NCBI GenBank assembly: GCA_045631585.1
Contig: JAZQUX010000190.1
Span: 1-50,546 of the forward strand
Source of the DNA: Eubacteriales bacterium
GTDB lineage: Bacteria > Bacillota > Clostridia > Oscillospirales > CAG-272
Length of the DNA: 50,546 nt
Direction: 5' to 3'
Position 1 is the first letter of the stretch, and each line of letters starts with the position of its first letter. Below are positions 1 through 44,029 of the stretch, piece after piece. Below the pieces are notes generated by a model. It worked only from the letters and a program-made list of their open reading frames with translations, made no database searches and had not been told where the DNA came from. The position numbers and the translations under genes were made by a program.

Positions 1-218
1 ACCGTATTGTCAACCTTTTCGTCATCGTTATATGCTCCGATAAGCTTTGCATTAACCTCTATCGCCTTGAGAAGGATATCCGCCGCAGCCTTATTGATGA
101 CACCGATACCCTCGACATTCTTCGCTACGCAGATTTTCGCCTTTCGCATCACGAACTCACAGTCTCGGATAAGTCGTTCCTTTGTGACGGGCTCTTCAGC
201 CCCAATCGCATCGCTGTC
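1..218. repeat. Left copy of the 218-bp window-end direct repeat (inside terS)
   Basis: Gap-free alignment to 50329-50546 with 9 mismatches (positions 51, 81, 102, 120, 138, 150, 153, 156, 159). Confidence 0.95.
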
Positions 219-428
219 AAAGGAGTCAAGCACCAATTCCTTACGCCTACGTTCAATTCGTTCCTTGATTTCGGGCTTTCTCGCCAATTCAGAGCCTCTG
301 TCATTCGCCACACGTTTCGTAAGCTCGCCGTTGATATGTATCAGATAAGCCTCATACAGCTTTGAGCCGTGAGCGACCGCATCGATAAAAGCCTCAAGAG
401 CCTCTTCGGAAACCTCAATTTTCTTCAT
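1..428 (-). CDS. terS: Terminase small subunit, 5' part (3' end runs off the window start; the homologous 3' end is seen at 50286-50546)
   Basis: ATG at 428-426 with GGAGGTG RBS at 438-444. Translation starts MKKIEVSEEALEAFIDAVAHGSKLYEAYLIHINGELTKRVANDRGSELARKPEIKERIE..., an HTH-like N-terminus typical of small terminases. In the circular map it lies immediately upstream of terL. Not in the ORF track because there is no stop inside the window. Joined to copy 2 it would be 156 aa. Confidence 0.6.
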   Translation of the reverse strand, partial: MKKIEVSEEALEAFIDAVAHGSKLYEAYLIHINGELTKRVANDRGSELARKPEIKERIERRRKELVLDSFDSDAIGAEEPVTKERLIRDCEFVMRKAKICVAKNVEGIGVINKAAADILLKAIEVNAKLIGAYNDDEKVDNT

Positions 429-469: not shown

Positions 470-501
470 ATGCTACCACAGAAATTTGCATTTTCATTCA
501 C
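470..501 (-). promoter_or_regulatory. Late-promoter-like motif, copy a (upstream of terS)
   Basis: Minus strand reads GTGAATGAAAATGCAAATTTCTGTGGTAGCAT. It shares GT[GA]AATGAAAA-N10-TGTGGTAG[CG]AT with 36485-36516 and 43948-43979, and ends 41 nt upstream of the terS ATG. Confidence 0.55.
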
Positions 502-750
502 GATTTTACTTTTGTGCAAAAATATTTTGTATTTTCTTCTCTTAAGGTAAGATTGTGCAAACAAAAGACAAAAAAATAAAGCCAATTCAAGACAATTGTC
601 CCCGAAACGGCAAAAAAACAAAGCCCCATCGGAACGCCCGACAAGGCAAATGCGACTCATTTTGAAAAAATCAATAAAGCCATATAATATAATTTTATGT
701 TAAAAATAAATAAAATAGGGTACACAGGGTATTTTTTTGACGAGATTCCG

Positions 751-792
751 ATAAAAAAGAAAAGTCCCGAAGCAGCATAACCGCTCCGAGAC
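751..792 (-). terminator. Intrinsic terminator after the HTH gene
   Basis: Minus strand has GUCUCGGAG / CUUCGGGAC, a 9-bp stem (2 G-U pairs) with an 11-nt loop, followed by UUUUCUUUUUUAU. Confidence 0.65.
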
Positions 793-808
793 CATTTCAA
801 ATATTAAT

Positions 809-1024
809 TCAGTCGTCCTCATCAGGAACATACTCGATGATATCACCGGGTTGACAGTTCAACAGCTCACACACCTTGTTCAGGCAATCCCCGTAAACGA
901 CATTTCCGCTCCGAATAAGCTGTATTTGGCTTTCCCCGAGCAATCTATCCTTCCGCATACGATAAGAGCTGTATCCCGCCTCTTTGAGCGCCTGAAGCAC
1001 ATCTATCTTGTATTTGATAGCCAT
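809..1024 (-). CDS. XRE/Cro-type helix-turn-helix regulator (71 aa)
   Basis: Internal ATG at 1024 of track ORF 809..1312, with AAAGGAGA RBS. Sequence MAIKYKIDVLQALKEAGYSSYRMRKDRLLGESQIQLIRSGNVVYGDCLNKVCELLNCQPGDIIEY matches the short HTH family ending ...L.C.PGDI.EY. It has its own consensus promoter and is divergent from the small-gene island. Confidence 0.75.
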   Translation of the reverse strand: MAIKYKIDVLQALKEAGYSSYRMRKDRLLGESQIQLIRSGNVVYGDCLNKVCELLNCQPGDIIEYVPDEDD

Positions 1025-1055
1025 AGTTTTCTCCTTTCGGTATTTTTTCATTATT

Positions 1056-1084
1056 ATTATATCATATATATGCACCGAAGTCAA
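1056..1084 (-). promoter_or_regulatory. Sigma-A consensus promoter for the HTH gene
   Basis: Minus strand TTGACT (1084-1079), 17 nt spacer, TATAAT (1061-1056). Confidence 0.7.
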
Positions 1085-1299: not shown

Positions 1300-1491
1300 A
1301 TGACAAACACACAGAACACCATCACAGACAAGATGTACGCAGACTTTATAAAGGAAGCGATAAAGAAAGAAGGTTGGAAAACAGCCGACATCGCAAACAA
1401 AATGGCGCTTGAAACCGAAGCAATCACACTCGACCAATACAGAATGGCGGCACAGATAATTGTAGCAGCTTATAAGAAAGAAAATTGGTAA
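1300..1491 (+). CDS. Hypothetical small protein (63 aa)
   Basis: ATG at 1300 preceded by AAAGGAGA RBS (internal start of track ORF 1270..1491). First gene after P1159. Confidence 0.65.
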   Translation: MTNTQNTITDKMYADFIKEAIKKEGWKTADIANKMALETEAITLDQYRMAAQIIVAAYKKENW

Positions 1492-3951: not shown

Positions 3952-3964
3952 ACTAAACAACAAA

Positions 3965-3999
3965 GCTCCGAGGAGAAATCCCCGGAGCCTTCTTTTTTT
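3965..3999. terminator. Bidirectional intrinsic terminator between convergent operons
   Basis: GCTCCG...CGGAGC stem followed by CTTCTTTTTTT on the plus strand, preceded by AACAACAAA (U-rich on the minus strand). Confidence 0.6.
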
Positions 4000-4327
4000 A
4001 TTCCACTTTGTTTTGCTGTTCCCCGCTGACGGGACCAAACTTCCAACCCCTGAAAGCTACATCCCACTTCTTCTTAACTTCCTTGATAAGCTTCGAAAGT
4101 AAAGCCTCGGAAACGTTAAACTTAATCGACACCGATGTCAGGGTATCCTTTGTCAGCATTCCGTAAAAGACCGCACCGACATACTCGTCAGCTACCGTTG
4201 CCGAAATCAGCAGGAAGAGTCTGTCTCTGAATTCTTCCGTCTGATATGCAGGATTAAGGCATACCCCGTCAATCAATTGATTTTTCTCCCTCGATATCCA
4301 ATCCCTCTGTTTGTTCCTTGAGTACAT
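3998..4327 (-). CDS. Putative late transcription regulator (sigma-70 region-4-like / RinA-ArpU-like HTH), 109 aa
   Basis: GAGGTGG RBS. The segment ...VFYGMLTKDTLTSVSIKFNVSEALLSKLIKEV... resembles region-4 type HTHs. It is the last gene of the early operon, the usual place for late activators. Confidence 0.45.
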   Translation of the reverse strand: MYSRNKQRDWISREKNQLIDGVCLNPAYQTEEFRDRLFLLISATVADEYVGAVFYGMLTKDTLTSVSIKFNVSEALLSKLIKEVKKKWDVAFRGWKFGPVSGEQQNKVE

Positions 4328-4415: not shown

Positions 4416-4661
4416 TTACTTTTTTCTCCCTCGAGAGCGCTCATCAATTGCCTTCTTGAGCTTGTTGTGCTTGCCTTTTCGCACCATCCCGTATGCCCAA
4501 TCTTGTATTTTGATTTTCCGCACCTTTTCGTTTTTCGCTCTTCGAGCTGCCTGCTCGTCAAAATAATCTTTGCAAGTTGAATGGCAAACCATCGTCCGTT
4601 TGGGGCATTCATAGCAAACCGATTCCCCAAAATTCAATCCCTTATTCGTTTTTCCCGTCAT
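4416..4661 (-). CDS. Cys-rich small protein (81 aa)
   Basis: ATG at 4661 (internal start of track ORF 4416..4703). Sequence MTGKTNKGLNFGESVCYECPKRTMVCHSTCKDYF... has a basic C-terminus. Confidence 0.6.
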   Translation of the reverse strand: MTGKTNKGLNFGESVCYECPKRTMVCHSTCKDYFDEQAARRAKNEKVRKIKIQDWAYGMVRKGKHNKLKKAIDERSRGRKK

Positions 4662-4830
4662 GCAAGAACACCTTGTACGACTTAATGTCAACACGATCCG
4701 CATCCATCATACTCTTGACACGGTGCTTGACGACAGCAGGGTAATCCTTTCGGATAAACTTCTCGTCAAGATTTGTCTTGATTACCTCGGTAACTTCAAT
4801 TGTGTAAATAACTGTGGTTTCTTTATTCAT
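4642..4830 (-). CDS. Hypothetical small protein (62 aa)
   Basis: ATG at 4830 with AAAGGAGA RBS. Overlaps the upstream stop by 8 nt. Confidence 0.6.
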   Translation of the reverse strand: MNKETTVIYTIEVTEVIKTNLDEKFIRKDYPAVVKHRVKSMMDADRVDIKSYKVFLHDGKNE

Positions 4831-5653: not shown

Positions 5654-6338
5654 TGTCAGCACCTTCCTTCTCCGTCATTTCTCCGCCCCATTGTTCTGCC
5701 ATTGCTTGTGCTATGCCCTCAAAGGTCTTGCTTGCATCCTTTGCATTATGTGCCACGCCTCTGCTACCTCCTCGCCCTTTTGCAAAGCCTCCCGTATTGC
5801 TTGGCAAAAACGGCTTATATTCGTTCAAAATGTTTGTAGGAATTAACTTCGGTAACCCTTTCAGCCACAACAATGTGCGTTTGGAAAAAGGATGCCCAAA
5901 TTGATACGGCTGAATTACTTGAGATTTTTTAGGCAAGCCTACAACCTTTAAAGGTGTCGGATTTTCAACACAAATTCTTTCACAATCAGCTTCAAGAAAA
6001 GTCATAAAAAATTCTTTCGCCTTCGAAGCCATCTCAAGCCTTTCTTGGTTAATATTGCCTGCCGTTAAATACATAAACCTCGCCCCTGCTTTGCTCATAT
6101 ATGTACACGGCGGATGAGCAATAATCATATCCCATCTTCCGTCAATGGTATGCTTTGCTCCGTCCATCGTCACAAATTCGCATCCGCCATTGATAAGCGG
6201 TATAACATCTTGCATTATATGCCATTCGGGATGCCCACCCGAGCATTCAATAATGTCACAAGAATATGCTTCGTGTCCTTTCGCACGAAAAGCCTTGCAT
6301 ACCGCTTGGCTCTCTTCACAAGCTACAAGTACTCTCAT
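5646..6338 (-). CDS. Short DNA cytosine-C5 methyltransferase-like protein (230 aa)
   Basis: PC motif IIAHPPCTYMS and ENV-like motif VENPTP. Non-canonical N-terminal motif I region (VLVACEESQAV). Confidence 0.65.
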   Translation of the reverse strand: MRVLVACEESQAVCKAFRAKGHEAYSCDIIECSGGHPEWHIMQDVIPLINGGCEFVTMDGAKHTIDGRWDMIIAHPPCTYMSKAGARFMYLTAGNINQERLEMASKAKEFFMTFLEADCERICVENPTPLKVVGLPKKSQVIQPYQFGHPFSKRTLLWLKGLPKLIPTNILNEYKPFLPSNTGGFAKGRGGSRGVAHNAKDASKTFEGIAQAMAEQWGGEMTEKEGADNA

Positions 6339-9160: not shown

Positions 9161-11026
9161 TCACCCTTCATTTTCGCTCTCTGTGTCGTAATAATCGGGT
9201 AATTCGGGCGTTCTTTCGCCCAAATAAAGGCACACGCAGTTAGTCAAAACACCGTTCACTCTGCTCTTTTTTGTGCGTTTTCCCTCCTCACAAGTCAGAT
9301 AACCTTGTCTCTTTGCCCACGCAAGGAAGGATGACGGATTGTAGCCTTGTGCACTCATCTCTCGGTCGAACACGGATTTTATTATGTAAACGCAATCAGG
9401 CTCATACTTGCCCCAAACCTCTCCCGGATACATATCAAACTTGTTTGCTCTAAAGTGATTCGGATTCATCGCACAAAGCTCGCAAATGTAATCATACGCC
9501 CTGACATTAATGTCAACCTCGCTCTTCTTGGACATTAAAGATGCTATATCATCAACCGTCAGCGCATAATCATCTTTGAATATCCACTCCGTAGCGATAG
9601 CATCCGCTGTCAATAAGATAGATGCCGAAGCAGCCTGCTTTTCCGTTGAGTCATACTTGAGTAATTCCTGATAGAATTCCTTCTGCAACGTACTTACAAA
9701 CTCAACCGAGCCCGCATATCGGAACATTTCAATAAACTTCTCACCTGCAAAGCCGTAATTTTCCTTGATAACATCGCATATCCCAACAAGGTCAGAGTAA
9801 ACCTTTTCGAAGCACTCAAACTCTATGATACGGTTAACAGCACCACCGTTTGAATTGCTGTTTGATATAGGCTGTTCGCCGTTGGTTATAAAACAGCAAC
9901 GCCACTTGTTCTGCGCTTGCAGACCGCCCGTCTTTGTGCCTCTCGTCTTTCCGACACCCTCACAAAGCTGATATATCATCTTGTCGAAATCCTTAACACC
10001 CGATGCAACCTGAATCTGTAATTCGTCAATGCACATAGGCAAACTGTTAAGAAAAGCCGCTGTCATTTCCTGACCTACGCCCGTGCTATTAAATGTGGTA
10101 ATGTACTCGCCCATCTTTGGAGACCCCCACACCGATGCCGCAATCATAAGTCCGACACTCTTGCCTAATCCCGTCCCACCCCACGAATGAAGGAAAAACG
10201 GAAGAAGTCCGCAAGGCTCAAGAAGTACACTTGCAAAGGATGCCGCAAGAAATAACCTACCTATAGTTTTTTCTGCTCTCATCTTGCGCATAGCCTCAAG
10301 CCATTTGTCGTAGCTACCGTGACTCTGTACCGCATTGAACATCCCTCTGAAACTGTTCTCCCCGTCAAAGGTAAGCCCTTCGACATAAGGAGCAAATCCG
10401 TGACCGCCCACCCATCCGAGTCGGGAAACAGACTTCTGCTCGGGGATAAGGCTGTAATTAAACTGTTCCATTTTAAAAAGGTAATTGGAAAGCTCCTTCG
10501 CATTGACGGAGTTAACCATAACCCCATCGTCCGAAAGCTCAAGAATGCTACTCGCAGAACTTATAACACTCTTTGGGACAATAATCTTCTTCCATTCATA
10601 ACCTTTCTTGAAAGCTATCTCAAGCCGTTCCTTACCGCTGTCAACATTGCATAATCGTCTGACAGGCAAAATCGGATGGTCGCACACGCAAACTTCAAAC
10701 CCGAATTGGTTAATGTATCGAACGCCGTAATCATCGCAAGTGTAAAACCCGGAGGAAAGCTCCAATTCCTGCCCGTCAAACCTTGTCGCATTCTCAACGC
10801 TCTGCTTCTGTTCCTTTTTGGACAGCAGAAACCCTTTCCAAAGCGACATAAACTTTTTAACGCCAACACTTGCCGCCTGCTCACGCATAAGCTCTATCAT
10901 TTGCTCAAGCAGAAAAACATTACCGATATAATTATATAAAAACTCGTACGGCACAGACGTGCTTATATAATCGTCTTTGGTGTAGTCGGGAATATCCCGA
11001 AGCACCAAATTTGTATTCTCATTCAC
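9161..11026 (-). CDS. DUF927-type replicative helicase / primase-associated ATPase (621 aa, GTG start)
   Basis: Walker A HSWGGTGLGKSV, with IDELQ downstream. The N-terminal half resembles DUF927. The GTG start overlaps the upstream stop by 8 nt. Confidence 0.7.
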   Translation of the reverse strand: MNENTNLVLRDIPDYTKDDYISTSVPYEFLYNYIGNVFLLEQMIELMREQAASVGVKKFMSLWKGFLLSKKEQKQSVENATRFDGQELELSSGFYTCDDYGVRYINQFGFEVCVCDHPILPVRRLCNVDSGKERLEIAFKKGYEWKKIIVPKSVISSASSILELSDDGVMVNSVNAKELSNYLFKMEQFNYSLIPEQKSVSRLGWVGGHGFAPYVEGLTFDGENSFRGMFNAVQSHGSYDKWLEAMRKMRAEKTIGRLFLAASFASVLLEPCGLLPFFLHSWGGTGLGKSVGLMIAASVWGSPKMGEYITTFNSTGVGQEMTAAFLNSLPMCIDELQIQVASGVKDFDKMIYQLCEGVGKTRGTKTGGLQAQNKWRCCFITNGEQPISNSNSNGGAVNRIIEFECFEKVYSDLVGICDVIKENYGFAGEKFIEMFRYAGSVEFVSTLQKEFYQELLKYDSTEKQAASASILLTADAIATEWIFKDDYALTVDDIASLMSKKSEVDINVRAYDYICELCAMNPNHFRANKFDMYPGEVWGKYEPDCVYIIKSVFDREMSAQGYNPSSFLAWAKRQGYLTCEEGKRTKKSRVNGVLTNCVCLYLGERTPELPDYYDTESENEG

Positions 11027-19291: not shown

Positions 19292-20353
19292 ATGCCCACG
19301 ATAAAGCAACTCCCGAGCGGTAACTACAACACCCTCATATACGACTTCACCGACCCGAATGGCAAAAGACACTATAAATCAATAACAGCTCCGTCAAAAA
19401 AGGAAGTAAAACTTCTTGTGGCGGAGTTTCTTGCGAGTAGGGAAGAACGAAAGGAAACACCCGACATCACCGTAAGAACGGCAATTGAACAATATGTCGA
19501 AGCTAAAAGCAATGTGCTGTCCCCGGCAACCTTGAGAGGCTATGATGTAATACTTCGCAATCGTATGAAGCGGATAATGGATATACCAATTTCAAAACTG
19601 TCATTGTCTGATATTCAGCTTGCTGTAAACGATGATTCGGAAAAACTCACACCAAAAACTGTCAGAAATACAAGCTCACTCGTGAGGTCGGCAATCCTTT
19701 TCGCAGCACCCAACTTCAGCTACAAAGTTACCTTGCCACAAAAAATAAAATCTGAAATCAAAATCCCGACAGAAGAGGAGATGCTCTGCATATTCAAGAA
19801 AGCCAAGGGAACAAACCTTGAAACAGCGATTTACCTTGCCGCAATGTGCGGTATGCGTAGAAGCGAAATCGTTGCCTTGAAGTGGTCGGATGTGGACCTC
19901 AAGAGCGGAATAATTAATATACGCCAAGCTGCCGTTCCCGACAGAAAAAACAAAACTGTTATCAAGACTACAAAAAACACATCAAGTACCCGGAGCATAA
20001 AAGTATTTACGCCCGTTCTCGCCCATCTAAAAACATTACCGCATAACACAGAAGCCGTGCAAGAATTCACTTCGCCAAACAGCATCACGGACGGATTTGC
20101 AGAATTGCTCAAAAGAAACGGAATCCCGCATTACCGATTCCACGATTTAAGACACTATGCCGTTTCGACTATGCTCTTGCTCAACATCCCCAAAAAGTAC
20201 ATAGCCGATTATGTCGGACACGAAACAGAGCATATGATAGACACAGTTTACGGACACATTATGCGAGATAAAAAAGATGACCTTATGGATGTCGTAAACG
20301 CTCATTTTTGCGATTTTTCAGCACAAATGCAAAACGAAATGCAAAACGAATAA
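19292..20353 (+). CDS. int: Tyrosine integrase
   Basis: 353 aa with ...GMRRSEIVALKWSDVD... and ...YRFHDLRHYAVSTML...GHETEHMIDTVYGHI (R / H-x-x-R / Y pattern). The att core lies 18 nt downstream. Confidence 0.9.
   Translation: MPTIKQLPSGNYNTLIYDFTDPNGKRHYKSITAPSKKEVKLLVAEFLASREERKETPDITVRTAIEQYVEAKSNVLSPATLRGYDVILRNRMKRIMDIPISKLSLSDIQLAVNDDSEKLTPKTVRNTSSLVRSAILFAAPNFSYKVTLPQKIKSEIKIPTEEEMLCIFKKAKGTNLETAIYLAAMCGMRRSEIVALKWSDVDLKSGIINIRQAAVPDRKNKTVIKTTKNTSSTRSIKVFTPVLAHLKTLPHNTEAVQEFTSPNSITDGFAELLKRNGIPHYRFHDLRHYAVSTMLLLNIPKKYIADYVGHETEHMIDTVYGHIMRDKKDDLMDVVNAHFCDFSAQMQNEMQNE
20325..20350 (+). repeat. 26-nt direct repeat, copy 1 (arm-site candidate, overlaps the integrase 3' end)
   Basis: AAATGCAAAACGAAATGCAAAACGAA, itself a tandem of AAATGCAAAAYGA. 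Matches 20544-20569 at 25 of 26 positions. Confidence 0.8.
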
Positions 20354-20370
20354 AAACTTTTCAACATATA

Positions 20371-20421
20371 TAAGGATTTGCTGAGTCTCTCGGAAGGGTT
20401 CAAGTCCCTTCGCCCGCACCA
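20371..20421 (+). other. attP core: 3' half of a type-II (long variable arm, Leu-like) tRNA ending in CCA
   Basis: Variable arm CTGAG-TCT-CTCGG, T-arm AAGGG-TTCAAGT-CCCTT, acceptor 3' strand CGCCCGC, discriminator A, CCA (ends at 20421). There is no complementary 5' acceptor strand or D-arm upstream, so it is not a complete tRNA gene. Confidence 0.7.
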
Positions 20422-20424
20422 AAA

Positions 20425-20462
20425 GGCAGTTTCAAGCTATTCTTGGAACTGTCTTTCTTTTT
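20425..20462 (+). terminator. Intrinsic terminator following the tRNA-like segment
   Basis: GGCAGTTTCAAG / CTTGGAACTGTC 12-bp stem (2 G-U pairs), loop CTATT, then TTTCTTTTT. Confidence 0.65.
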
Positions 20463-20484
20463 AACTTATTCTTGAAATTAAGAT

Positions 20485-20540
20485 GGTTTAAATCCAACCC
20501 AAAAGGTTTAAATATAACCCGAAAAGTTTAATTTTAAACC
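20485..20540 (+). repeat. Tandem GGTTTAAAT...AACCC[AG]AAA units in the P' arm
   Basis: GGTTTAAATCCAACCCAAAA / GGTTTAAATATAACCCGAAAA / GTTTAATTTTAAACC. Confidence 0.6.
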
Positions 20541-20543
20541 ACT

Positions 20544-20569
20544 AAATGCAAAATGAAATGCAAAACGAA
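20544..20569 (+). repeat. 26-nt direct repeat, copy 2
   Basis: AAATGCAAAATGAAATGCAAAACGAA, 219 bp downstream of copy 1 and on the other side of the att core. Confidence 0.8.
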
Positions 20570-20583
20570 ATATAAAACCAAAA

Positions 20584-20617
20584 GTGAGAGAGCCGAAACT
20601 CCCTCACCTTTTTTTTG
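20584..20617. terminator. Bidirectional terminator at the 3' end of the accessory cassette
   Basis: GTGAGAGAG / CTCCCTCAC stem (8 of 9 paired), loop CCGAAA, flanked by a T-run on the plus strand and an A-run (U-run on the minus strand). Confidence 0.6.
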
Positions 20618-29500: not shown

Positions 29501-32500
29501 ATATGTATCCTTGTTATTCTTATGCTCGCTCGGATAAATATTCTTGCTGACTTTCTTCCTTGCATTTTCGCTTGAAAGGTTAAGGCTGTCAACATATGCA
29601 TCCCAAAGATTCTTATCAGCTATCGTGTCACCCGACTCACTTGTGTAATTAAGCCACTTGTAATACTCGGCAACATCCGTACCCGTTCTTACAATGTGGA
29701 ACGGAATTATAACATCCGACCATTCCTGCTCGCCTGCCCATCTCAAAGCCTCATCATTGGTAACTGTCGCAACTATACCCACATTCGGATATTTCTTACG
29801 AAGCTCAACAGCCTTTTCAAAATTCGCAGATTGCTTTTCATCAATAAAGAAGTTCCCGTTTGCATCCTGATTGACAAATACGGAGACATTGATGTTCATT
29901 CCCGTAGAAGCAAATATCTCAACAAAATCGGTGTCTTTTGTGTATGCCAAGCCTTTAAGACCACGAATTGAAGCATCCGTTATCTGCTGCATATTCTCTA
30001 CGATAAATGCCGCAGAGTAATCGCTGAAGGAATACCATCTCAAGCCATAATGTTCGTTAAGGTTTTTAACCACTCTGTCCCCGAGCTTCAGAATCTCATC
30101 ACGATATGCAACATAGTTTTTCTGAATCTTTGACCACGAAGCACTCTGTGCATATTTTCTCGCATCCGCAAGCTGTTCTGCAAGAATACCACCCTTTGCC
30201 TTAATGTCACTCTGACGTTCTTCCGTAGCAATGTCCGCAAGGGATAAAAGCTGTGTGCCGTTGTCAACAGCCGAAATCCACTTGTCGAATCTCGACTTCA
30301 TTTCCTTTGTGTCTTTTCTGCCGCGAAGGAATTCTTCATATAACTTCTTTATGCTTTCGGCACTCTTGTCGCTGTTGTTATACTTCGCAATTACAGTATC
30401 CCTTTCGGTCATATAACGAAGAAGCATATCATTGAATGCTTTTCTGTCAAGTGATACATAACAGTACAAACATTGAGGCTCTGTGGCTATGTCGTAAAGC
30501 TTCTGCGACACAAGGAAAGATTCCATCTGTGTCAAAGGTCTTCCTATCTCTTCCTGCACCTTGTCAACAAATTCGTTGTACGCAAGCGTTCTTACACAAA
30601 TTGTGGTATTCTCAACCGAGCGGTCGTAAGAGCCGTTCTTTGTAAGCACCTTGCCGATTTTATCTTCGGGAAGAATCTCGGAATACTTCATCATCACATC
30701 AACCATAGCTCGGGTTACTTCTTGAGCATCCTTAAGCTCAGCCTCTGTAATGCTTGACTTGTTATTGCGAATATATTCCAATTCTCCTTTTGCAATATCA
30801 TCGTTGTGAGTTAGAGAATATCTTGTATCAAGTTCGTTGCTTGTGATTCTTTCTGCATCAATTTCCGCAAGTGCTTTTTTTGTATTTGTATCGGCTGTTT
30901 TTTCTGCAGAATCCTTTCCGTCAACCTTACCCTTAATAGCCCCTTCAAAGTCCCTAATAACCTTATCAAACTCATTGACAAACGCATCCTTCGAGTTGAA
31001 CGCTTTCTTTATGCCGTTTGCCATCTTTCTAAGGAACGAAAGAATAATATTTGCATCATTAGTTTCAAGCTTTCCTGCAAACATTTCAAGAAGCTCCGTG
31101 CTACCCATAGTCTCGCACATAAGGTCAGCCGCTATCTCGCTCTCAATATACTCATTTGAAAGTGTTCTCGGTTTTCTTCCTTCTGACTCGGCAATAGCAT
31201 TTTCGTGACTCTGATAACGCTCTCTGTATGCCTCATACTGTTTCTCATTGTATATGCCCATTTCGGCAAACACCTTGAGAGCTCTCTGTGCAATGCCCGG
31301 TGCTTTAGATTCCGCTTCGTGGAAAAGCTCGTGAGAAAGTACCCAAAACGCGCTCTGTTCACCCGAAAGCATCGAGCCGTTAAGAGTAATGGTTGTCTTT
31401 CCGCCTTTTGCTGTCCAATCCCCTCGAACAGCACCATCGGAGTTATCGTAATAAACAGATATTGAAACGTCAACGCCCGAAGCCTTAAATGCCTTTTCTA
31501 TGCTCTTTGCATACACTTCAACAGCATAGTTTCTGTTATCGTTGCTGAACTCATTACTCTCAAACATATCCGCAACAGATACGGCAGAGTTTTCGCCCTT
31601 AATCACATTACCAAGATACTCAAGTGCTTCAAGAGTTGAGTTATCTCCTCTTGCTTTTGCTGTTGCTATCTCTGTAGAAATGCCGTTGATTACTTTCTGA
31701 ATAACGGAGCCTCCACCCGAAATGGAAGTTGCAAATCTTCTGAAAAGCGATTTCGCTCTTGAACGAACAAGGCTTTCCGCTGTGATACCGAGCTTCTTTG
31801 CCATATTTCCGATTGCTCTGTATCTCTGTTCCTCGTTCTTGAAGTCGTAGTCGGAATACTTCTGTGCGGCTTGCTGAAGTGCCTTGTTGTTGCTTTCCTT
31901 TGCTTTTTTGATAACCTCATTGGTGTAATCCGCCTCGGAAACAGCCTTGCCTACAGCAAGAGTATCACCCTTTACCGCTTTGGCAACGGAGGTTGTATTC
32001 GTTTTAACAGAGCCACCTATTTTTTGGTCTCTTATTACCTGATCGATTTTTTCCTTGCCGACACTTTCGATTTTTGTTGTAGCATTTGTTACGGCTTCTT
32101 CAATCGTATTACCACTTCCGAATTCAAGCCCGCTCGACTTTTCAACGATGCTGAAGGTTTTCTTGCCATCTATGTTATTTTCTGCGGCATAAAGGTCATA
32201 TCCGAAATCATTGTCGATATGAACGCCCTTGCTTTTTACAAGCTTGTTCTTATATCTGCGGATAATATCAACCTCGTTTGACCTCTTCACGACTTCCGTT
32301 GTGTTTGCTTCCTTTACCTCATTGTTTGCATCAAGGATGGCTTCATTTATGGTGCTTTCCATATCACCGTTTTGTTCCGCACCTTCTTCGCTCTGCATAG
32401 GAACTTTTACATCTATGCTTTCTGTTTCTCCGACATCAATTTTTTCATCGGCAGAGTCATTGAGTATTCCCGAAAAGAGCATCTGAACATCAAATCCGTC

Positions 32501-34921
32501 AAGACCTTCTCCACTCGCAACAGCCTTTTCTATTTCAAGTGCAATCTTCTTTGTTTCGGGGTTGGTGCTTTCCTTACCGAGTCTCACAAGCTCATTGATA
32601 TTGATACCGCCTGCAATGAGCTTTTCACCGTCTCTTCTCACATCGGCTTCGCTGATTCCTGCGTAGTTGAAAAGACCTCTCGCTCCACCGAGAGCCATAC
32701 CGCTTATATAAGAAACAACAGCCGTGTTGAGACCATTCTTTATAAGGATTTGCATCATACCCGAGCCTACATCAACAGCCTTGCCGTCAACAACAAGTTT
32801 TCTCGCCTGCTGATACAGTTCGCTTTCTTCTCCGTTGAGGGCATAGTCGGAAATGTATCTTACGGCATCGTTTGTGAGTTCTCCGAGTACCTCGTTAGAA
32901 CCTGAAAGTCTTGCCGCCTTCACCATTCTCTTGAAGTGGTTAGGGTTAAATCTCGTCATATCGAGAGCCTTGTTAAGCGCTCCTAATTCGATTTTTTCTG
33001 TTAAGCCCTCGGAGAATGCCGTAACAGTAGACATTATAGCGTTCTTTGTCGGGTCTGAATAAGCATCGACTCCGCTCTTGTATTCCGTAGCGAAGCTCTG
33101 TGCAAACATCATTGCCGCACCGCCAAACACACCAAGCGGAGACCTTGCAAGGTTTTCGGCAATACTGTTCGTAAGCCCGTATATACCGCTGCCCCAAGCC
33201 TCTGCATTTTTTCTGTCCATACCGAGGAATTCAAGCACATCTGCGTTCTGCGCTGTACCAATTTCCGCTCTGCCCTTGTCAACGCCCGATTTTACCGAAG
33301 AGAGCTGTCCGTATCCTAAATGAGTCTTGTATGTAGGAAGCTCCGACTTCTCGATATTTGAGACTATCGCAGAGCCTATGGATTCACCCGCACTCGGAAG
33401 TGAAAGAGCATACGAAGCCATAAAGCCTCCAACACCTGCACCAACCTTGTCTAAGAAACTTCCGTTTTCTACAATGTTGTTGTACCATTTCGCAACAGCT
33501 TCTTCTGCTCCGAAATTAAAACGGGGTTTCAAAATTCCGAGGTAATACGACTCCCACGAATTATCGCCTGCGTTGTACATAATACCAAGGCGTACCAAGT
33601 CTGTGTTGGTAAGCTTCGCTGTCGGGCTTATTCGACCAACCGCTTTCTGCAAGTCGTTGATATCGCATTCGCCTTTTTCGGCTTTTTTATACAACTCATC
33701 ATTTGTGTAATTGGTAGCAACCGCAGAAGTGCTTTCACCGTAATTATATGCATCAAGGTTTGAAAGTTCTTCGTAATTTCTTTTGATGACATCCTTTACG
33801 ATTTCCGAAATAGTCTTGTTATCGGGAAGCTCGCCTTCTCCGTCATACCAAGCCTTTCCGTACTTATCTTTGTACTTTGCAAGTTCCCACTCCCTTGTGA
33901 CATAGTAATCAGTTTCGGCTTTCTTACTTTCCGCTTCGGAGCGTATCATTTCAAGCTCGGCTTTTCTCTTGATAGCCGCTTCCTCTTCGGGAGTATAAGT
34001 ATATCCGTAAGTTACATTTGCTCTTACGCCCTTTTGGTCAACGTTTCCGAGATTCATCGAAGAGCTTCTTTTCTGATTTGCATTGTTTACGATGGAAGAA
34101 ACCGCTTCGTACTCAGCCTGAAGTTCGGGAGTCCAAATCGAGTCATACATAATATTCGAGAGCTTTGCTGACTCTTTCTCAATCTCATCCTCGGAGAGCA
34201 TTCCTGCGTACATGGTGATTAATCCAACCCCGTTTTCCTTGAAGAACTTCGGTGCTTTGGTTGCCATCGATTCAAGGTCTGCAAAAGCAGATTGTCGAGC
34301 CTTGTTTCCACCGCTTTCCTTTCCGAAAGAATCGACATTGTGATAGAACGACCTTGTTGTCTCAACCCCGGTTGCATAATCGTCATCACCCATCTTTATC
34401 TGCTCATCGATATAACCCTTATTCTTGTTATAGTCCCTCGGTGAAAGCGATTTGTACTGATTGGTGTATTCTGTAGCCCGTTCATCATACACCGCAAGTT
34501 CTTCCGCTGTAGCACCATTCTTCTGAGCTTCTCTTCTGTCCTCGGAATTTGTCTTGATTAAGCCGAGAAGGTTGTTCTGCTTCTGCTGAAAGCCTGCCTG
34601 AGCCGCAGTTGTTGTTTTGGTATTGCCACTCGCATCCGTGACAGTAACCTCTCTTTCGGGGTTGACGGGTCCCATTCCAAGTGCAATTGCGTGACCGGGT
34701 TTGTTTCTGTTCTCCCATTCCTGACGACCCTCATCGAGAATTGTGTCAGTATACGCAACCTTTGCCTTGCTACGGGATTCCTCTTTTTCTTTTTCTTCTT
34801 TGGTTTTTTCTTTCTTCGTAGTAGGCTTGATGTACTCCTCTTTGGTGTACTTCGCTTCGAGTTCCTCTTTAGTGGAGTTCATCATATCTTTGATTACGGG
34901 GTTTTTCTTTTTGAAAGCCAT
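23588..34921 (-). CDS. Giant multidomain (polyvalent-type) late protein, 3,777 aa
   Basis: Single uninterrupted ORF with AAGGAGGG RBS. HELFH at aa 1197-1201, GHEGRHR at aa 2289-2295, FYHGT at aa 2423-2427 with GYDGIKITN at aa 2657, Gly-rich hydrophobic block from aa 493, TM-like helix near aa 3226. The function of most of the protein is unknown. Confidence 0.85.
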   Translation of the reverse strand: MAFKKKNPVIKDMMNSTKEELEAKYTKEEYIKPTTKKEKTKEEKEKEESRSKAKVAYTDTILDEGRQEWENRNKPGHAIALGMGPVNPEREVTVTDASGNTKTTTAAQAGFQQKQNNLLGLIKTNSEDRREAQKNGATAEELAVYDERATEYTNQYKSLSPRDYNKNKGYIDEQIKMGDDDYATGVETTRSFYHNVDSFGKESGGNKARQSAFADLESMATKAPKFFKENGVGLITMYAGMLSEDEIEKESAKLSNIMYDSIWTPELQAEYEAVSSIVNNANQKRSSSMNLGNVDQKGVRANVTYGYTYTPEEEAAIKRKAELEMIRSEAESKKAETDYYVTREWELAKYKDKYGKAWYDGEGELPDNKTISEIVKDVIKRNYEELSNLDAYNYGESTSAVATNYTNDELYKKAEKGECDINDLQKAVGRISPTAKLTNTDLVRLGIMYNAGDNSWESYYLGILKPRFNFGAEEAVAKWYNNIVENGSFLDKVGAGVGGFMASYALSLPSAGESIGSAIVSNIEKSELPTYKTHLGYGQLSSVKSGVDKGRAEIGTAQNADVLEFLGMDRKNAEAWGSGIYGLTNSIAENLARSPLGVFGGAAMMFAQSFATEYKSGVDAYSDPTKNAIMSTVTAFSEGLTEKIELGALNKALDMTRFNPNHFKRMVKAARLSGSNEVLGELTNDAVRYISDYALNGEESELYQQARKLVVDGKAVDVGSGMMQILIKNGLNTAVVSYISGMALGGARGLFNYAGISEADVRRDGEKLIAGGININELVRLGKESTNPETKKIALEIEKAVASGEGLDGFDVQMLFSGILNDSADEKIDVGETESIDVKVPMQSEEGAEQNGDMESTINEAILDANNEVKEANTTEVVKRSNEVDIIRRYKNKLVKSKGVHIDNDFGYDLYAAENNIDGKKTFSIVEKSSGLEFGSGNTIEEAVTNATTKIESVGKEKIDQVIRDQKIGGSVKTNTTSVAKAVKGDTLAVGKAVSEADYTNEVIKKAKESNNKALQQAAQKYSDYDFKNEEQRYRAIGNMAKKLGITAESLVRSRAKSLFRRFATSISGGGSVIQKVINGISTEIATAKARGDNSTLEALEYLGNVIKGENSAVSVADMFESNEFSNDNRNYAVEVYAKSIEKAFKASGVDVSISVYYDNSDGAVRGDWTAKGGKTTITLNGSMLSGEQSAFWVLSHELFHEAESKAPGIAQRALKVFAEMGIYNEKQYEAYRERYQSHENAIAESEGRKPRTLSNEYIESEIAADLMCETMGSTELLEMFAGKLETNDANIILSFLRKMANGIKKAFNSKDAFVNEFDKVIRDFEGAIKGKVDGKDSAEKTADTNTKKALAEIDAERITSNELDTRYSLTHNDDIAKGELEYIRNNKSSITEAELKDAQEVTRAMVDVMMKYSEILPEDKIGKVLTKNGSYDRSVENTTICVRTLAYNEFVDKVQEEIGRPLTQMESFLVSQKLYDIATEPQCLYCYVSLDRKAFNDMLLRYMTERDTVIAKYNNSDKSAESIKKLYEEFLRGRKDTKEMKSRFDKWISAVDNGTQLLSLADIATEERQSDIKAKGGILAEQLADARKYAQSASWSKIQKNYVAYRDEILKLGDRVVKNLNEHYGLRWYSFSDYSAAFIVENMQQITDASIRGLKGLAYTKDTDFVEIFASTGMNINVSVFVNQDANGNFFIDEKQSANFEKAVELRKKYPNVGIVATVTNDEALRWAGEQEWSDVIIPFHIVRTGTDVAEYYKWLNYTSESGDTIADKNLWDAYVDSLNLSSENARKKVSKNIYPSEHKNNKDTYLSLCESRGLSPRFVRFAGEAWYMKLVNETRLSADESSPLKPEYNLDAAKDSFQKFIDKGGYEGGWYKEGVDVEGEVKTVARDVLAGKKANEVEYGRQDGYNPEEIAANRKKNRVHEGDKKYALQGVDKVDNEGDKFTYDALISLPDMEVTKVSDKIPKKEDGKLDRAKVKFDAMNNAFSVGEKANSSLALVENKYTSKKIAVRPSAIGHGLDRRTNVAVVSGKIGELLQNAVSVNEMSSRSNVAYVNKSYPMVAIASDETGAKYAVLLIVNDVEGKIPELVDLSVSEVLYSVNAKKEESAVHSTRGHTSAQNAEYSLTDSNISISEVLSFVKDYFPDVLSNDVLSRFGMAKSGDSKYENVRYALSSFNKEGLTETEIENAKTVIDGLKTRAMASKYLDGYASYTSERMERELKASSSSDVIDYAKSYITWVEPTDFVYATTTSSESRQQLKEEAGTLDLEKLRNQEQPIHLTVDFETGEIVGHEGRHRMLALQKAGVDKVAVVIDALNDDRHHTKPIEFMSLKGQRFGEYRKGTDMYLHDALPLSQRYADVARGLFTTETKSGVRYSLPGNNKLDTEYLEIAKNPEQNKAKLQEIVDEAAIEWGCDVGKNGKPVRFYHGTNNFGFTTIDVAKSDDGISFFATDDLEVARTYVSNSTKVDTEVRKIGKKGEADTTKQGQAEKNEYTKTVNNVSAKRDRMLEFINKKLGEKSQDDVLGISGIIADRIRSIENGETGFSEEIKTHEAFERAYRDFVKRYTEHKHGKAYSWEEHIDTDEGIKLREEWSDYEIGIRADLSTLHSPRGNKGIYEMYGKTDGFLEIDAMGDRWDNIWTADGGKLKTRDVAKLAKEQGYDGIKITNLLDDGGQGHKRQTKPATVYIFLNPAEQMKSADPVTYDDEGNVIPISERFSEKGDIRWALSDNGNMSLEDAWNEKIEKYGAIPKGMNPARDVKVPKRISDNKYVSRTARSAIESGLTPEEFVSEFQKDILDGKFTYERFTDEKAEQKAKELIEYHGFEDALRHWDFIAHSGGAISKENFAFGIELYNQCAQNGDFKNAEKILADISAEATIAGQAIQAMSMLKKMSPDGTLYYLERSIDKINDELVAKFGEKRAKKVKIDEDLANRYFAEKDAAKREELYKELCKDIGEQIPSTFWEKEDAWRYLSMLFNPTTHMRNFAGNILNLIVTKINNTIEGAIQPIFIKQEDRTKTLKWADKKTAEFAKNDWELMKDMLTSGEGKYGNIVSDIDKYRRILRPTKNAGKVTKVVGNALGFAPEMLNKFNSWALEKEDELFLGVSYRSALKKIITARKLDVDNISSEELSKIRELAIKEAKRATFREANALAEAISRTRAKLMKGNLGEKVGGIALGGLFPFTKTPMNITKQSLETSPLGVFKTAYDVVEKSRGKAVSGNDIIADVARTFTGTGLFILGAVLARAGVVSAGDDEDKDKKRFDKLVGEQSYAINFRDGKSYTMDWATPASIPFLVGAQFYKTIEEEGLNFKAFADSIGAITEPVIGLSMLDGLRDFLESDNYSDNGAPTAAIESILSNFILQHFPTLGGKIKRIASPQKKNYYFINKNSETPEFVQELYGSIASKLPFEVGNYQASVDLWGRIENYGGVGERLAENLISPGYYSEDNYTDVDNEILRLYESTGNGDVFPKKMYEDITISGNTYYMNAEQYKDAAVMLGERRFDMLSRLFNDEIVLKNQDTVYSEMTDSEKSSIVMNVYKQALDETKYAMLDVVKGNAESSAEATAIQIVKSKEDEANSINKGNPTGVNGVTYVYWKQKNNFIEQAQKAIADGDKKNAEGFEKDLEKRAEKYDGTLSRGEELIAEMYDKTQNDDLFYTKAESYILQQTSDGIKEKKPMSYHDYSGMMKSMNDASEYVALAVFGNNFDKAKASKIKSSSSNMTKYINAGVTATNAYKRSLANKVRSGEMTQDDADVLYYKELISKIKSEIRADYKEDYFGKTK

Positions 34922-36439: not shown

Positions 36440-36484
36440 AATAATTTCCTCCTGTAAAAAATAAATTATTTATAACCTATAAAA

Positions 36485-36516
36485 ATCCTACCACAAAAAT
36501 CGCACTTTTCATTTAC
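36485..36516 (-). promoter_or_regulatory. Late-promoter-like motif, copy c
   Basis: Minus strand reads GTAAATGAAAAGTGCGATTTTTGTGGTAGGAT. Ends 45 nt upstream of the ATG at 36439 and lies just downstream of terminator 36527-36555. Confidence 0.55.
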
Positions 36517-36526
36517 ATTTTAAAAC

Positions 36527-36555
36527 AAAAAAAGAGGACGGAAATTACCGCCCTC
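36527..36555 (-). terminator. Intrinsic terminator after the sigma-r4-like gene
   Basis: Minus strand GAGGGCGG / CCGUCCUC stem (one mismatch), loop UAAUUU, then UUUUUUU. Confidence 0.6.
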
Positions 36556-36563
36556 AAAACTGT

Positions 36564-36770
36564 TCAATTTTTCGAGATGTACCGAGCAATCTTCTTTCCT
36601 ATTCGTGAACGTCTGCGCTTAAGTGTAGATACCGAGATGCTCAATTCCTCTGCAATATCCACACAAGCCCAACCTCTCCGTAGGTAAGGAACAATCTCAA
36701 GCTCATCGTCCGTAAAGCCGCAGTTTTCGATAAAAGCTTCCCACTCATCCTTGTAGAATCGCATTATCAC
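36564..36770 (-). CDS. Mini sigma-70 region-4 / LuxR-type HTH protein (66-68 aa)
   Basis: ...YLRRGWACVDIAEELSISVSTLKRRRSRIGKKIARYI. GTG at 36770 or ATG at 36764. Last gene of the tail-lysis transcription unit. Confidence 0.6.
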   Translation of the reverse strand: MIMRFYKDEWEAFIENCGFTDDELEIVPYLRRGWACVDIAEELSISVSTLKRRRSRIGKKIARYISKN

Positions 36771-43890: not shown

Positions 43891-43947
43891 AGATACCCAC
43901 CTTCCTCATCCGACAGATTTTTACCCTATTGTACCTGCCACAATTTA

Positions 43948-43979
43948 ATGCTACCACATTTTTCCGCATTTTCATTTAC
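43948..43979 (-). promoter_or_regulatory. Late-promoter-like motif, copy b
   Basis: Minus strand reads GTAAATGAAAATGCGGAAAAATGTGGTAGCAT. Ends 57 nt upstream of the ATG at 43890 and lies just downstream of terminator 43995-44029. Confidence 0.55.
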
Positions 43980-43994: not shown

Positions 43995-44029
43995 CAAAAA
44001 AAGAAGAAACCCGTGACAAAAGCCACGGG
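43995..44029 (-). terminator. Intrinsic terminator after the major capsid gene
   Basis: Minus strand CCCGUG / CACGGG stem, 8-nt loop, then UUUCUUCUUUUUUU. Confidence 0.65.

Follow-up and report, generated by a model that had tools for sequence, protein, structure and literature searches.

Little is known of how phages of gut Clostridia control their late genes, and the locus examined here raises the question of what switches on the late genes in one such lineage. The locus is contig JAZQUX010000190.1 of an Eubacteriales bacterium (assembly GCA_045631585.1), which was analysed over its whole length of 50,546 nucleotides (hereafter the window) and is most likely the genome of a temperate podovirus-like phage of gut Clostridia. 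Its late strand carries three copies of a bipartite 32-nt motif, here called class A, one upstream of the small terminase subunit gene terS (copy 1), one between the major capsid gene and the virion/tail/lysis block (copy 2), and one before the genes for a 500-aa protein and a 3777-aa polyvalent protein (copy 3). The reading argued for below, to which a probability of about 0.6 is given, is that the three copies are shared late promoters, composed of an extended -10 element for the host sigma-A and a phage-specific box, and probably dependent on an activator.

The pattern GTRAATGAAAA-N10-TGTGGTAGSAT has exactly three matches in the window, all on the minus strand, and none is expected by chance, because 100 dinucleotide-preserving shuffles contain no match at all. 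An unbiased repeat search over the whole genome arrives at the same three sites, which constitute the largest dispersed direct-repeat family (D1, 38 nt), so that an earlier interpretation made from the letters alone (the sequence-only reading), which had listed three minus-strand copies, is borne out by both approaches. The halves of the motif occur together at these sites only, and relaxed searches add just weak matches in coding sequence. Among the three copies each 11-nt block agrees at 10-11 of 11 positions, and the 10-nt spacers have few positions in common. Given that the blocks are kept while the spacers differ, selection appears to have acted on two contact surfaces, which argues against recent copying or duplication; the pattern within the genome thus suits recognition by a protein with a bipartite footprint better than it suits a recent duplication. 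From the end of the motif to the first ATG of the following block there are 41, 57 and 45 nt for copies 1, 2 and 3, within the 41-57 nt given by the sequence-only reading, and strong ribosome-binding sites are found there.

The right half of the motif, TGTG-G-TAGSAT, conforms to an extended -10 element of the TRTGn type, with a TAnnnT hexamer and a TG one base upstream of it, which the primary sigma factor of the host, sigma-A, would read. How TGn promoters compensate for a weak -35 element has been reviewed (PMC2613000), and for TRTGn in Gram-positive bacteria that review cites Voskuil and Chambliss (2002). The left half has the core GAAAnGA at about -37 to -31, extending in the window genome to -25 as AAATGAAAATGC, and an A-rich tract lies upstream of this box. 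A consensus -35 element is lacking, the best reading being ATGAAA at a spacing of 16 nt with four of six positions matched, and 2-3 of six in relatives. A scan of the window for consensus sigma-A promoters does not list the class A sites, yet it contains perfect TTGACA-N17-TATAAT promoters at four other sites; in both respects the sequence-only reading, which had called the motif a poor sigma-A promoter unlike perfect ones elsewhere, was right. Conservation falls on GAAAnGA and not on TTG: where the putative -35 has its T, other phages may have C or A, and the purines outside that hexamer are fixed.

Given that a phage-specific box replaces a usable -35 element, activator dependence is probable, and since the phage's other promoters are perfect matches to the consensus, the departure of class A from it looks deliberate. 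Scans of roughly 45 open reading frames (ORFs), all of 60 aa or more, against Pfam and PHROG detected no sigma factor that has a region 2. The sigma-A RNA polymerase would need a phage-encoded DNA-binding activator on the class A box, and a sigma-A holoenzyme that uses its -10/-16 contacts together with a box-bound activator would be the simplest mechanism. Transcripts would start 5-9 nt past the hexamer, and each copy would start one cassette, namely terS to capsid, virion/tail/lysis, and the block of the 500-aa and 3777-aa polyvalent proteins; in a lysogen the late genes, including the lysis genes behind copy 2, would be off, and induction would turn them on together. The motif, its conservation in two parts, its position and its strand are shown by the sequences; promoter activity, the need for an activator and the timing are what we infer from these features. 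The need for a phage factor, proposed earlier, is plausible on two grounds, that GAAAnGA is not read by region 4 of sigma-A and that lysis genes stand behind copy 2. The consensuses of extracytoplasmic function (ECF), sporulation and other alternative sigma factors were considered for the motif and rejected, the spacing and the -10 not fitting. Copy 2 only is followed, about 5 nt past its -10 hexamer, by a second TTGTGG/TGTGRTAG-like element (43934-43943, minus strand), which is kept at the equivalent place in three relatives (L094, L096 and L097, as AATTGTGGCAGG, AATTGTGATAG and AATTGTGGTAG); a possible role is that of a further -10-like sequence within the initially transcribed region, such as a sigma-dependent pause site.

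It is also conceivable, albeit unlikely, that sigma-A reads class A as an ordinary promoter without any phage factor, the late timing being brought about by repressor control, read-through or template copy number. In Firmicutes, a TRTGn extended -10 with an upstream A-tract and an ATGAAA at 16 nt, matching TTGACA in four of six positions, could suffice (PMC2613000). This explanation sits poorly with the preference of the phages for GAAAnGA, whose purines sigma-A does not read, over a -35 that falls to 2-3 of six in relatives and has a variable T, and with the perfect consensus of the other phage promoters. Moreover, a constitutive promoter before endolysin and holin genes would harm the lysogen, and no operator-like repeat overlapping the sites was noticed.

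Comparative evidence comes from related phages. Six related loci (L094 to L099), whose major capsid proteins are 66-91% identical, were reached through capsid homologues at graded identity, and in all of them a diverged form of the motif occupies the same late-strand slots, upstream of terS and just past the capsid terminator, as well as, where the locus reaches, a third slot past the terminator of a gene for a 68-aa protein (see below) and before a 500-aa-like gene. When a weight matrix was built from 12 instances and about 170 kb were scanned, one site per slot was obtained in the window and in L094-L099, all on the late strand (three slots where the locus extends, two in L094, L097 and L099), and the only other match was a weak one, with a score of 14.2, within the giant ORF. 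Such a scan had been put forward in the sequence-only reading, and it finds the motif conserved upstream of late units in six phages. MAFFT alignments of whole intergenic regions, built blind to the motif, point to the same blocks: in the five-genome alignment of the copy 2 slot (A1), AAAnGA and TGnTA are the invariant intergenic columns, and the other two slots show the same conserved blocks, while spacer and leader have drifted freely across phages, with no conservation of the downstream leader. From 16 instances of 7 genomes, aligned by anchoring on the hexamer, the consensus reads as an A-rich tract (about -50 to -40), GAAA[T/C/A]GA (-37 to -31), often RRRTGC, a mostly T-rich spacer, T[G/A/C]TG-n and TAnnnT. 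TA at -12/-11 is present in all 16, T at -7 in 12, and TG at -15/-14 in 13, with the TG one base closer in the other 3; TRTG is found in all three copies of the window. The motif is missing from 80 distant capsid relatives (35-44% identity, 1.3 Mb), as are all three candidate regulators discussed below, which fits a lineage-specific set of regulator and promoters and is silent on the choice of partner among the proteins. In IMG/VR, exact scans for the motif core and for a relaxed pattern of box plus TGnTA gave 93 and more than 120 single matches, which come with no flanks and have poor matrix scores; they were discarded as chance or coding matches.

The same alignments bear on the very improbable idea that the motif is not a promoter but an RNA-level signal, such as a processing site or a leader structure, or a recombination boundary for module swaps. 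The motif does mark module boundaries, the giant-ORF block being placed differently in L097 and L099, and in distant relatives the post-capsid slot holds an arm of a long-range inverted repeat that is RNA-based in look. However, covariance models of Rfam give no match anywhere in the window at the gathering score, and conserved complementarity is absent: copy 2 is without the A-tract/T-tract pairing of the others, and no long-range partner arm for it was found upstream of the capsid gene. Bipartite conservation at a fixed spacing to TAnnnT, before a leader that is not conserved, likewise speaks for a promoter. The inverted repeat is an observation in its own right: more than 60 distant capsid relatives (L228-L307; e.g., L242 at about 9830 and 11240, L236, L300 and L301) carry GGCACTTGCTGAA behind the hairpin of the capsid gene and its reverse complement GTCAGCAAGTGCC upstream of that gene (about 160 nt in L242), the pair bracketing about 1.4 kb. 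The variants GGTAC.. and GGCGC.. would still pair as G-U, and the arrangement suggests a long-range RNA duplex around the capsid mRNA; the arm pair is absent from the clade of the window. GGCAC..TTGC in these relatives was considered as a sigma-54 promoter and rejected, the GG-to-GC spacing being wrong and the sequence being one arm of the inverted repeat.

On the late strand, promoters, genes and terminators are arranged as four successive cassettes, which may be regarded as a late regulon. Hairpins with a U-tract are indeed present at the three loci where the sequence-only reading had put terminators, and copies 2 and 3 start about 20 and 10 nt past the T-tract of one, which agrees with its statement that every copy lies a few nt behind a terminator; copy 1 departs from it, with terminator-like hairpins about 250 and 112 nt upstream. 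The earlier notion of a modular terminator-promoter regulon is thus broadly right, in that the layout is real and reaches a fourth unit, and needs amendment as to the position of copy 1, the nature of a 109-aa protein and the role of the 68-aa protein. An AT-rich block, ATACCCTGTGTACCCTATTTTATTTATTTTTAACATAAAATTATATTATATGGCTTT (about 676-732, minus strand), in the long region upstream of terS is near-invariant in L094, L095 and L098 and partly so in L096, its flanks differing; it may be a pac or cos-related site, an origin, or another promoter.

The fourth late-strand promoter, which lies beyond the three of the sequence-only reading, is of a different type (class B). It consists of four TTGAK units whose TGA are exactly 11 nt apart, the last unit lying within TTGAGCTACA, followed by 18 nt and the hexamer TAGAAT, and it stands directly behind the terminator of the giant ORF and heads five or six small genes up to the terminator that closes the late strand. 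The 68-aa protein bears on this promoter. Its matches to Pfam GerE, HTH_23 and Sigma70_r4_2 stay under the cut-offs and its PHROG matches are weak, and the profile of its family matches solved LuxR-type structures (E 6e-6) and GerE (E 0.016). The AlphaFold2 (AF2) model has four helices and a mean predicted local distance difference test score (pLDDT) of 92.7; its best Foldseek match is region 4 of sigma-H (3mzy; template modelling (TM) score 0.81, root-mean-square deviation 1.4 A, 33% identity), with further matches to region 4 of ECF sigma factors, the C-terminal domains of NarL, DosR and VraR, and KorA. As judged from the model, the protein has a genuine sigma-region-4/LuxR-type helix-turn-helix (HTH) fold, a four-helix bundle. 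Of the two region-4-like proteins posited earlier, the 68-aa protein is upheld by profile, AF2 and Foldseek, and the 109-aa protein, which has no family signature, is not.

In six other loci (L097, L102, L103, L104, L308 and L310), a 68-aa homologue stands at the end of the late/lysis block and is followed by a terminator and a class B promoter, which there has three or four short units phased at about 11 nt, with yTGAnnnACA containing the last of them, and then 18 nt and a TAnAAT-type hexamer; one of L097 and L102-L104 carries myovirus-type baseplate genes. The homologue in L312, 40% identical, differs in its recognition helix and in its unit, which is TGCCG, repeated three times at 11 nt, and across the loci the unit changes with the recognition helix (TTGAGC, TTGATTA, TGAACC, TGCCG). 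Since the repeat unit covaries with the protein, the adjacent array is argued to be the target of the 68-aa family, and homologue and array together look like a portable regulator-promoter pair present in several gut phage types. The 68-aa protein of the window therefore most probably controls class B, and with it the fourth late cassette, rather than class A. As class B in the window sits past the terminator of the giant ORF, the block of copy 3, 500-aa gene, giant ORF and terminator looks as if inserted between the 68-aa gene and its array.

The tie of its family to class B makes the 68-aa protein a poor candidate for the reader of the three-copy motif, a role in which it would act as a class II activator or as a stand-in for region 4 of sigma-A. 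This explanation, which we regard as improbable, draws on the facts that the protein is the only one of the phage with a demonstrable fold of the type that reads a -35, that it is conserved in all close relatives whose locus covers the slot (L094-L098), that its gene lies directly upstream of copy 3 in the window, and that class A and class B boxes have a common TGA(A) core about 38 nt upstream of the start. Against this, the 68-aa gene closes a late unit that depends in turn on copy 2; the fetched 68-aa loci, where the homologues are followed by terminator and class B, gave no scoring class A site; the joint change of helix and unit in L312 points to the array as the family target; and within one genome the class A box, GTRAATGAAAATGC, differs from the TTGAGC units of class B.

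For the activator of class A, a 109-aa protein encoded by the last gene of the early/replication operon is, by position alone, the favoured candidate, because the end of the early operon is where the genes of Ltr-type late activators have been described. The gene holds the same position in L094, L095, L096 and L098, that is, in every relative covering the region. Pfam, PHROG, NCBIfam and a profile search of the PDB return no match for its family, and its profile matches that of the 68-aa family with a probability of 8%. The family is tiny, with 3 representatives in an exhaustive HMMER search; searches for the locus gave one near-identical contig of a metagenome-assembled genome (MAG) and one short contig, and the most divergent homologue led to a second short contig. 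Just upstream lies a conserved ORF for a small basic Cys4 protein (CxxC-x6-CxxxC), which has no family match and has a tblastn match to a 74-aa protein of L094 (L094 1623-1847, E 4e-4); it is a possible third DNA-binding regulator. The gene directly before terS was also considered as the class A factor and rejected, since it is swapped for an unrelated gene among phages with the same motif: in the window (809-1051) and L098 (3401-3613) it encodes an HTH_26 (Cro/C1-type) protein, and in L094 (3798-3980), L095 (3742-3927) and L096 (3088-3273) a ribbon-helix-helix protein (RepB-RCR_reg-like). In the window this gene, on the minus strand, has its own near-consensus promoter (1084..1056) and terminator.

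Several points weigh against activator-dependent late promoters served by such a protein. The extended -10, the A-tract and a 3-4/6 match at -35 could suffice for sigma-A alone, and the G at the third position of the hexamer (TAG in 11 of 16 instances) is unusual for sigma-A, so that another specificity is conceivable. The 109-aa protein belongs to no recognisable DNA-binding family and its single-sequence AlphaFold model is of low quality (pLDDT 49); 3.5 kb and an opposite-strand module separate its gene from terS, to which the genes of Ltr-type activators are adjacent; and the co-occurrence of motif and 109-aa family was checked across only five close genomes. A more far-reaching proposal, which we hold only tentatively, is that the 109-aa protein, alone or jointly with the Cys4 protein, is the founding member of a new late-activator family that would retarget sigma-A to a GAAAnGA box near -31, with a separate sigma-4-like regulator for the fourth cassette. 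The 109-aa family would then be one without detectable relation to Ltr, Alt, Mor/C, Ogr or MotA, with a MotA-like box instead of a -35. If true, a temperate Firmicute phage would have a MotA-like mechanism, and its late expression would be a two-step cascade with a fourth, later cassette.

Set beside known systems, class A works like the activator-dependent late or middle promoters of several phages and is a demonstrable member of none. In Gram-positive phages, late activators belong to the Ltr superfamily (RinA, ArpU, LtrA/Sigma70_r4, LtrB/DUF1492 and LtrC), which act on a late promoter upstream of terS that is without a good -35 and depends on the activator; the activator gene stands last in the early cluster and immediately upstream of terS, with direct repeats just behind it, and in the description of such phages a single late promoter drives the entire cluster of late genes (Quiles-Puchalt et al. 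2013, PMC3753634). The class B/68-aa module resembles this in its layout of regulator gene, terminator, short direct repeats and promoter, and the 68-aa protein in its Sigma70_r4-like fold, as in the LtrA family. In contrast, the window has three dispersed class A copies plus class B instead of one late promoter, the class A box overlaps the -35 region whereas Ltr systems have 7-nt repeats by the activator gene, the 109-aa protein matches no Ltr Pfam family, and the 68-aa gene comes last in the lysis block and has a target other than terS. The 68-aa protein reaches the Ltr families only through sub-cut-off matches to Sigma70_r4_2/GerE, though the fold agrees, and the Ltr gene order is absent for class A and is found only with the 68-aa/class B module in other phages.

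Several dispersed late promoters (Plys, PI, PP and Pmom), with the site of one activator, C, a sigma-70 -10 and a poor -35, are described for phage Mu (PMC4461284). As in the window, each heads a morphogenesis or lysis unit. A comparable dispersed and activator-dependent type is that of P2 and P4, whose late promoters are activated by Ogr/Delta; the sites of C and Mor have dyad symmetry, and that of Ogr is at about -55. The hosts of Mu and P2 are Proteobacteria, however, and the class A box is asymmetric and lies at -37 to -25; no homologue of the C/Mor or Ogr/Delta activators was detected among the scanned ORFs. In the middle promoters of T4, a MotA box near -30 replaces the -35, the host-type -10 is often TGn-extended, and sigma is appropriated with AsiA. 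The combination of a host-type -10 and a phage-specific box in the place of the -35 makes class A similar at the level of mechanism, by analogy, whereas the sequence of its box is unrelated and the phage of the window is temperate; the MotA and AsiA families were absent from the ORFs scanned with PHROG and Pfam. Alt of the lactococcal phage TP901-1 binds a series of direct repeats and in this resembles class B. Its binding takes place upstream of terS, in the promoter region, and its phylogenetic distribution is narrow (summarised in PMC3753634). That phage differs in having a single late promoter, and Alt is unrelated to the proteins of the window as far as the tools show.

The features on which the argument draws are collected in the table, with the relatives and the loci of the 68-aa module. 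The 218 bp at 1-218 are identical to 50329-50546 at the other end of the window, so that 50328 bp are unique and the contig was assembled either as a circle or with terminal redundancy; because the assembly is circular, terS runs past the contig end. In GenBank, megablast with 14 kb of the window found no match among phages and hence no close relative, and a search of IMG/VR with the capsid protein alone found no relatives; a copy of the 109-aa gene at 99% identity lies on a near-identical contig binned in an Acutalibacteraceae MAG. A tRNA scan of the window gave no gene, and ARAGORN no complete tRNA. The giant 3777-aa ORF is of the 'polyvalent protein' type, and PBECR5, LPD3 or ART-PolyVal domains are found in the giant ORFs of relatives (L097 1-3876; L099 1-4377; L096 from 21017; L102 1-6363); its block lies behind the lysis genes in the closest relatives of the window and directly upstream of terS in L097 and L099. 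A probable phage attachment site (attP) adjoins the integrase gene, its core being a tRNA 3'-end-like fragment, TGGTGCGGGCGAAGGGACTTGAACCCTTC (minus strand), between tandem 12-nt repeats, AAATGCAAAAYG; repeats and tRNA-like core also accompany the integrases of L097 and L104. The repeats are likely arm-type integrase sites; as class A boxes they were rejected, given that they go with the integrase in L097 and L104 as well and lie on either side of the tRNA-like core. In L096, a YafQ/ParE-RelB toxin-antitoxin pair (5750-6284) is encoded on the opposite strand between the large terminase and portal genes.

Table. Coordinates of the features discussed in the window (strand in brackets where given) and in related loci
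Feature	Position	Strand	Remarks
Class A copy 1, before terS	470..501	(-)	exact match; box GTGAATGAAAATGC 501-488; TRTG element TGTG 480-477; -10 hexamer TAGCAT 475-470; predicted start near 463; terS ATG at 428; same slot in L094-L099
Class A copy 2, between capsid gene and virion/tail/lysis block	43948..43979	(-)	exact match; box 43979-43966; TGTG 43958-43955; TAGCAT 43953-43948; predicted start near 43941; next ATG 43890; five-genome alignment A1
Class A copy 3, before 500-aa and 3777-aa polyvalent protein genes	36485..36516	(-)	exact match; hexamer TAGGAT 36490-36485; predicted start near 36478; next ATG 36439; alignment A2
Class B promoter, fourth late unit	23464..23532	(-)	TTGAK units 23532-23493; TTGAGCTACA 23497-23488; TAGAAT 23469-23464; next ATG 23431; alignment A6 with L097, L102-L104, same register in all
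Terminator-like hairpin and T-tract ending small Cro/C1-type HTH gene	763..793	(-)	upstream of copy 1
Second terminator-like hairpin, long region upstream of terS	623..647	(-)	upstream of copy 1
Terminator behind major capsid gene, end of late unit 1	44010..44029	(-)	conserved in relatives
Terminator behind 68-aa gene, end of late unit 2	36534..36555	(-)	
Terminator behind giant ORF, end of late unit 3	23544..23577	(-)	
Terminator closing late strand, end of unit 4	20580..20611	(-)	adjoins attP
terS	1..428, continuing 50328-50286	(-)	156 aa; opens late unit 1; matches PHROG terminase small subunit at E 1.4e-5
Late unit 1 genes		(-)	terS, large terminase, P22-type portal, SU10-like major capsid; Pfam/PHROG scans
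Unit behind copy 2		(-)	internal virion protein, tail-fibre-like protein, M23 endolysin, holin-like protein, 68-aa HTH protein
Unit behind copy 3		(-)	500-aa protein; 3777-aa protein with weak ART-PolyVal match
Giant 3777-aa ORF	23588-34921	(-)	
68-aa stand-alone sigma-region-4/LuxR-GerE-type HTH protein	36564..36770	(-)	last gene of late unit 2
109-aa orphan protein	3998..4327	(-)	last gene of early/replication operon; terminator follows at 3991..3962
Small basic Cys4 protein	4416..4703	(-)	real start probably internal
Early region	about 17.7 kb down to 4.0 kb	(-)	RecT, exonuclease, single-stranded DNA-binding protein, primase-helicase, two methyltransferases
Lysogeny module			tyrosine integrase and CI/Cro-like HTH proteins
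Integrase gene	19292-20353		
Probable attP	20300-20600		AAATGCAAAAYG repeats at 20325-20350 and 20544-20581
L094			capsid 89% identical to window
L095			capsid 87% identical to window
L096			capsid 82% identical to window
L098			capsid 79% identical to window
L097			capsid 69% identical to window
L099			capsid 66% identical to window
68-aa module, L097	18857-19048		
68-aa module, L102	10213-10328		
68-aa module, L103	9201-9311		
68-aa module, L104	10210-10386		
68-aa module, L308 and L310	about 10200-10400		
68-aa module, L312	about 1330-1460		

Class A is most likely an ordinary kind of phage control signal, met here in an unstudied lineage, and the general picture of phage late-gene timing is left unchanged by it. 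If the assignments hold, the motif would mark the late operons in this phage lineage, the 68-aa protein and its repeat array would be a portable pair, and the 109-aa protein would represent a new activator family. The locus offers a testable regulon, with three promoters that have one box in common, a fourth with phased repeats, and three small candidate regulators, and its main value is as a clean test bed for two orphan regulators.

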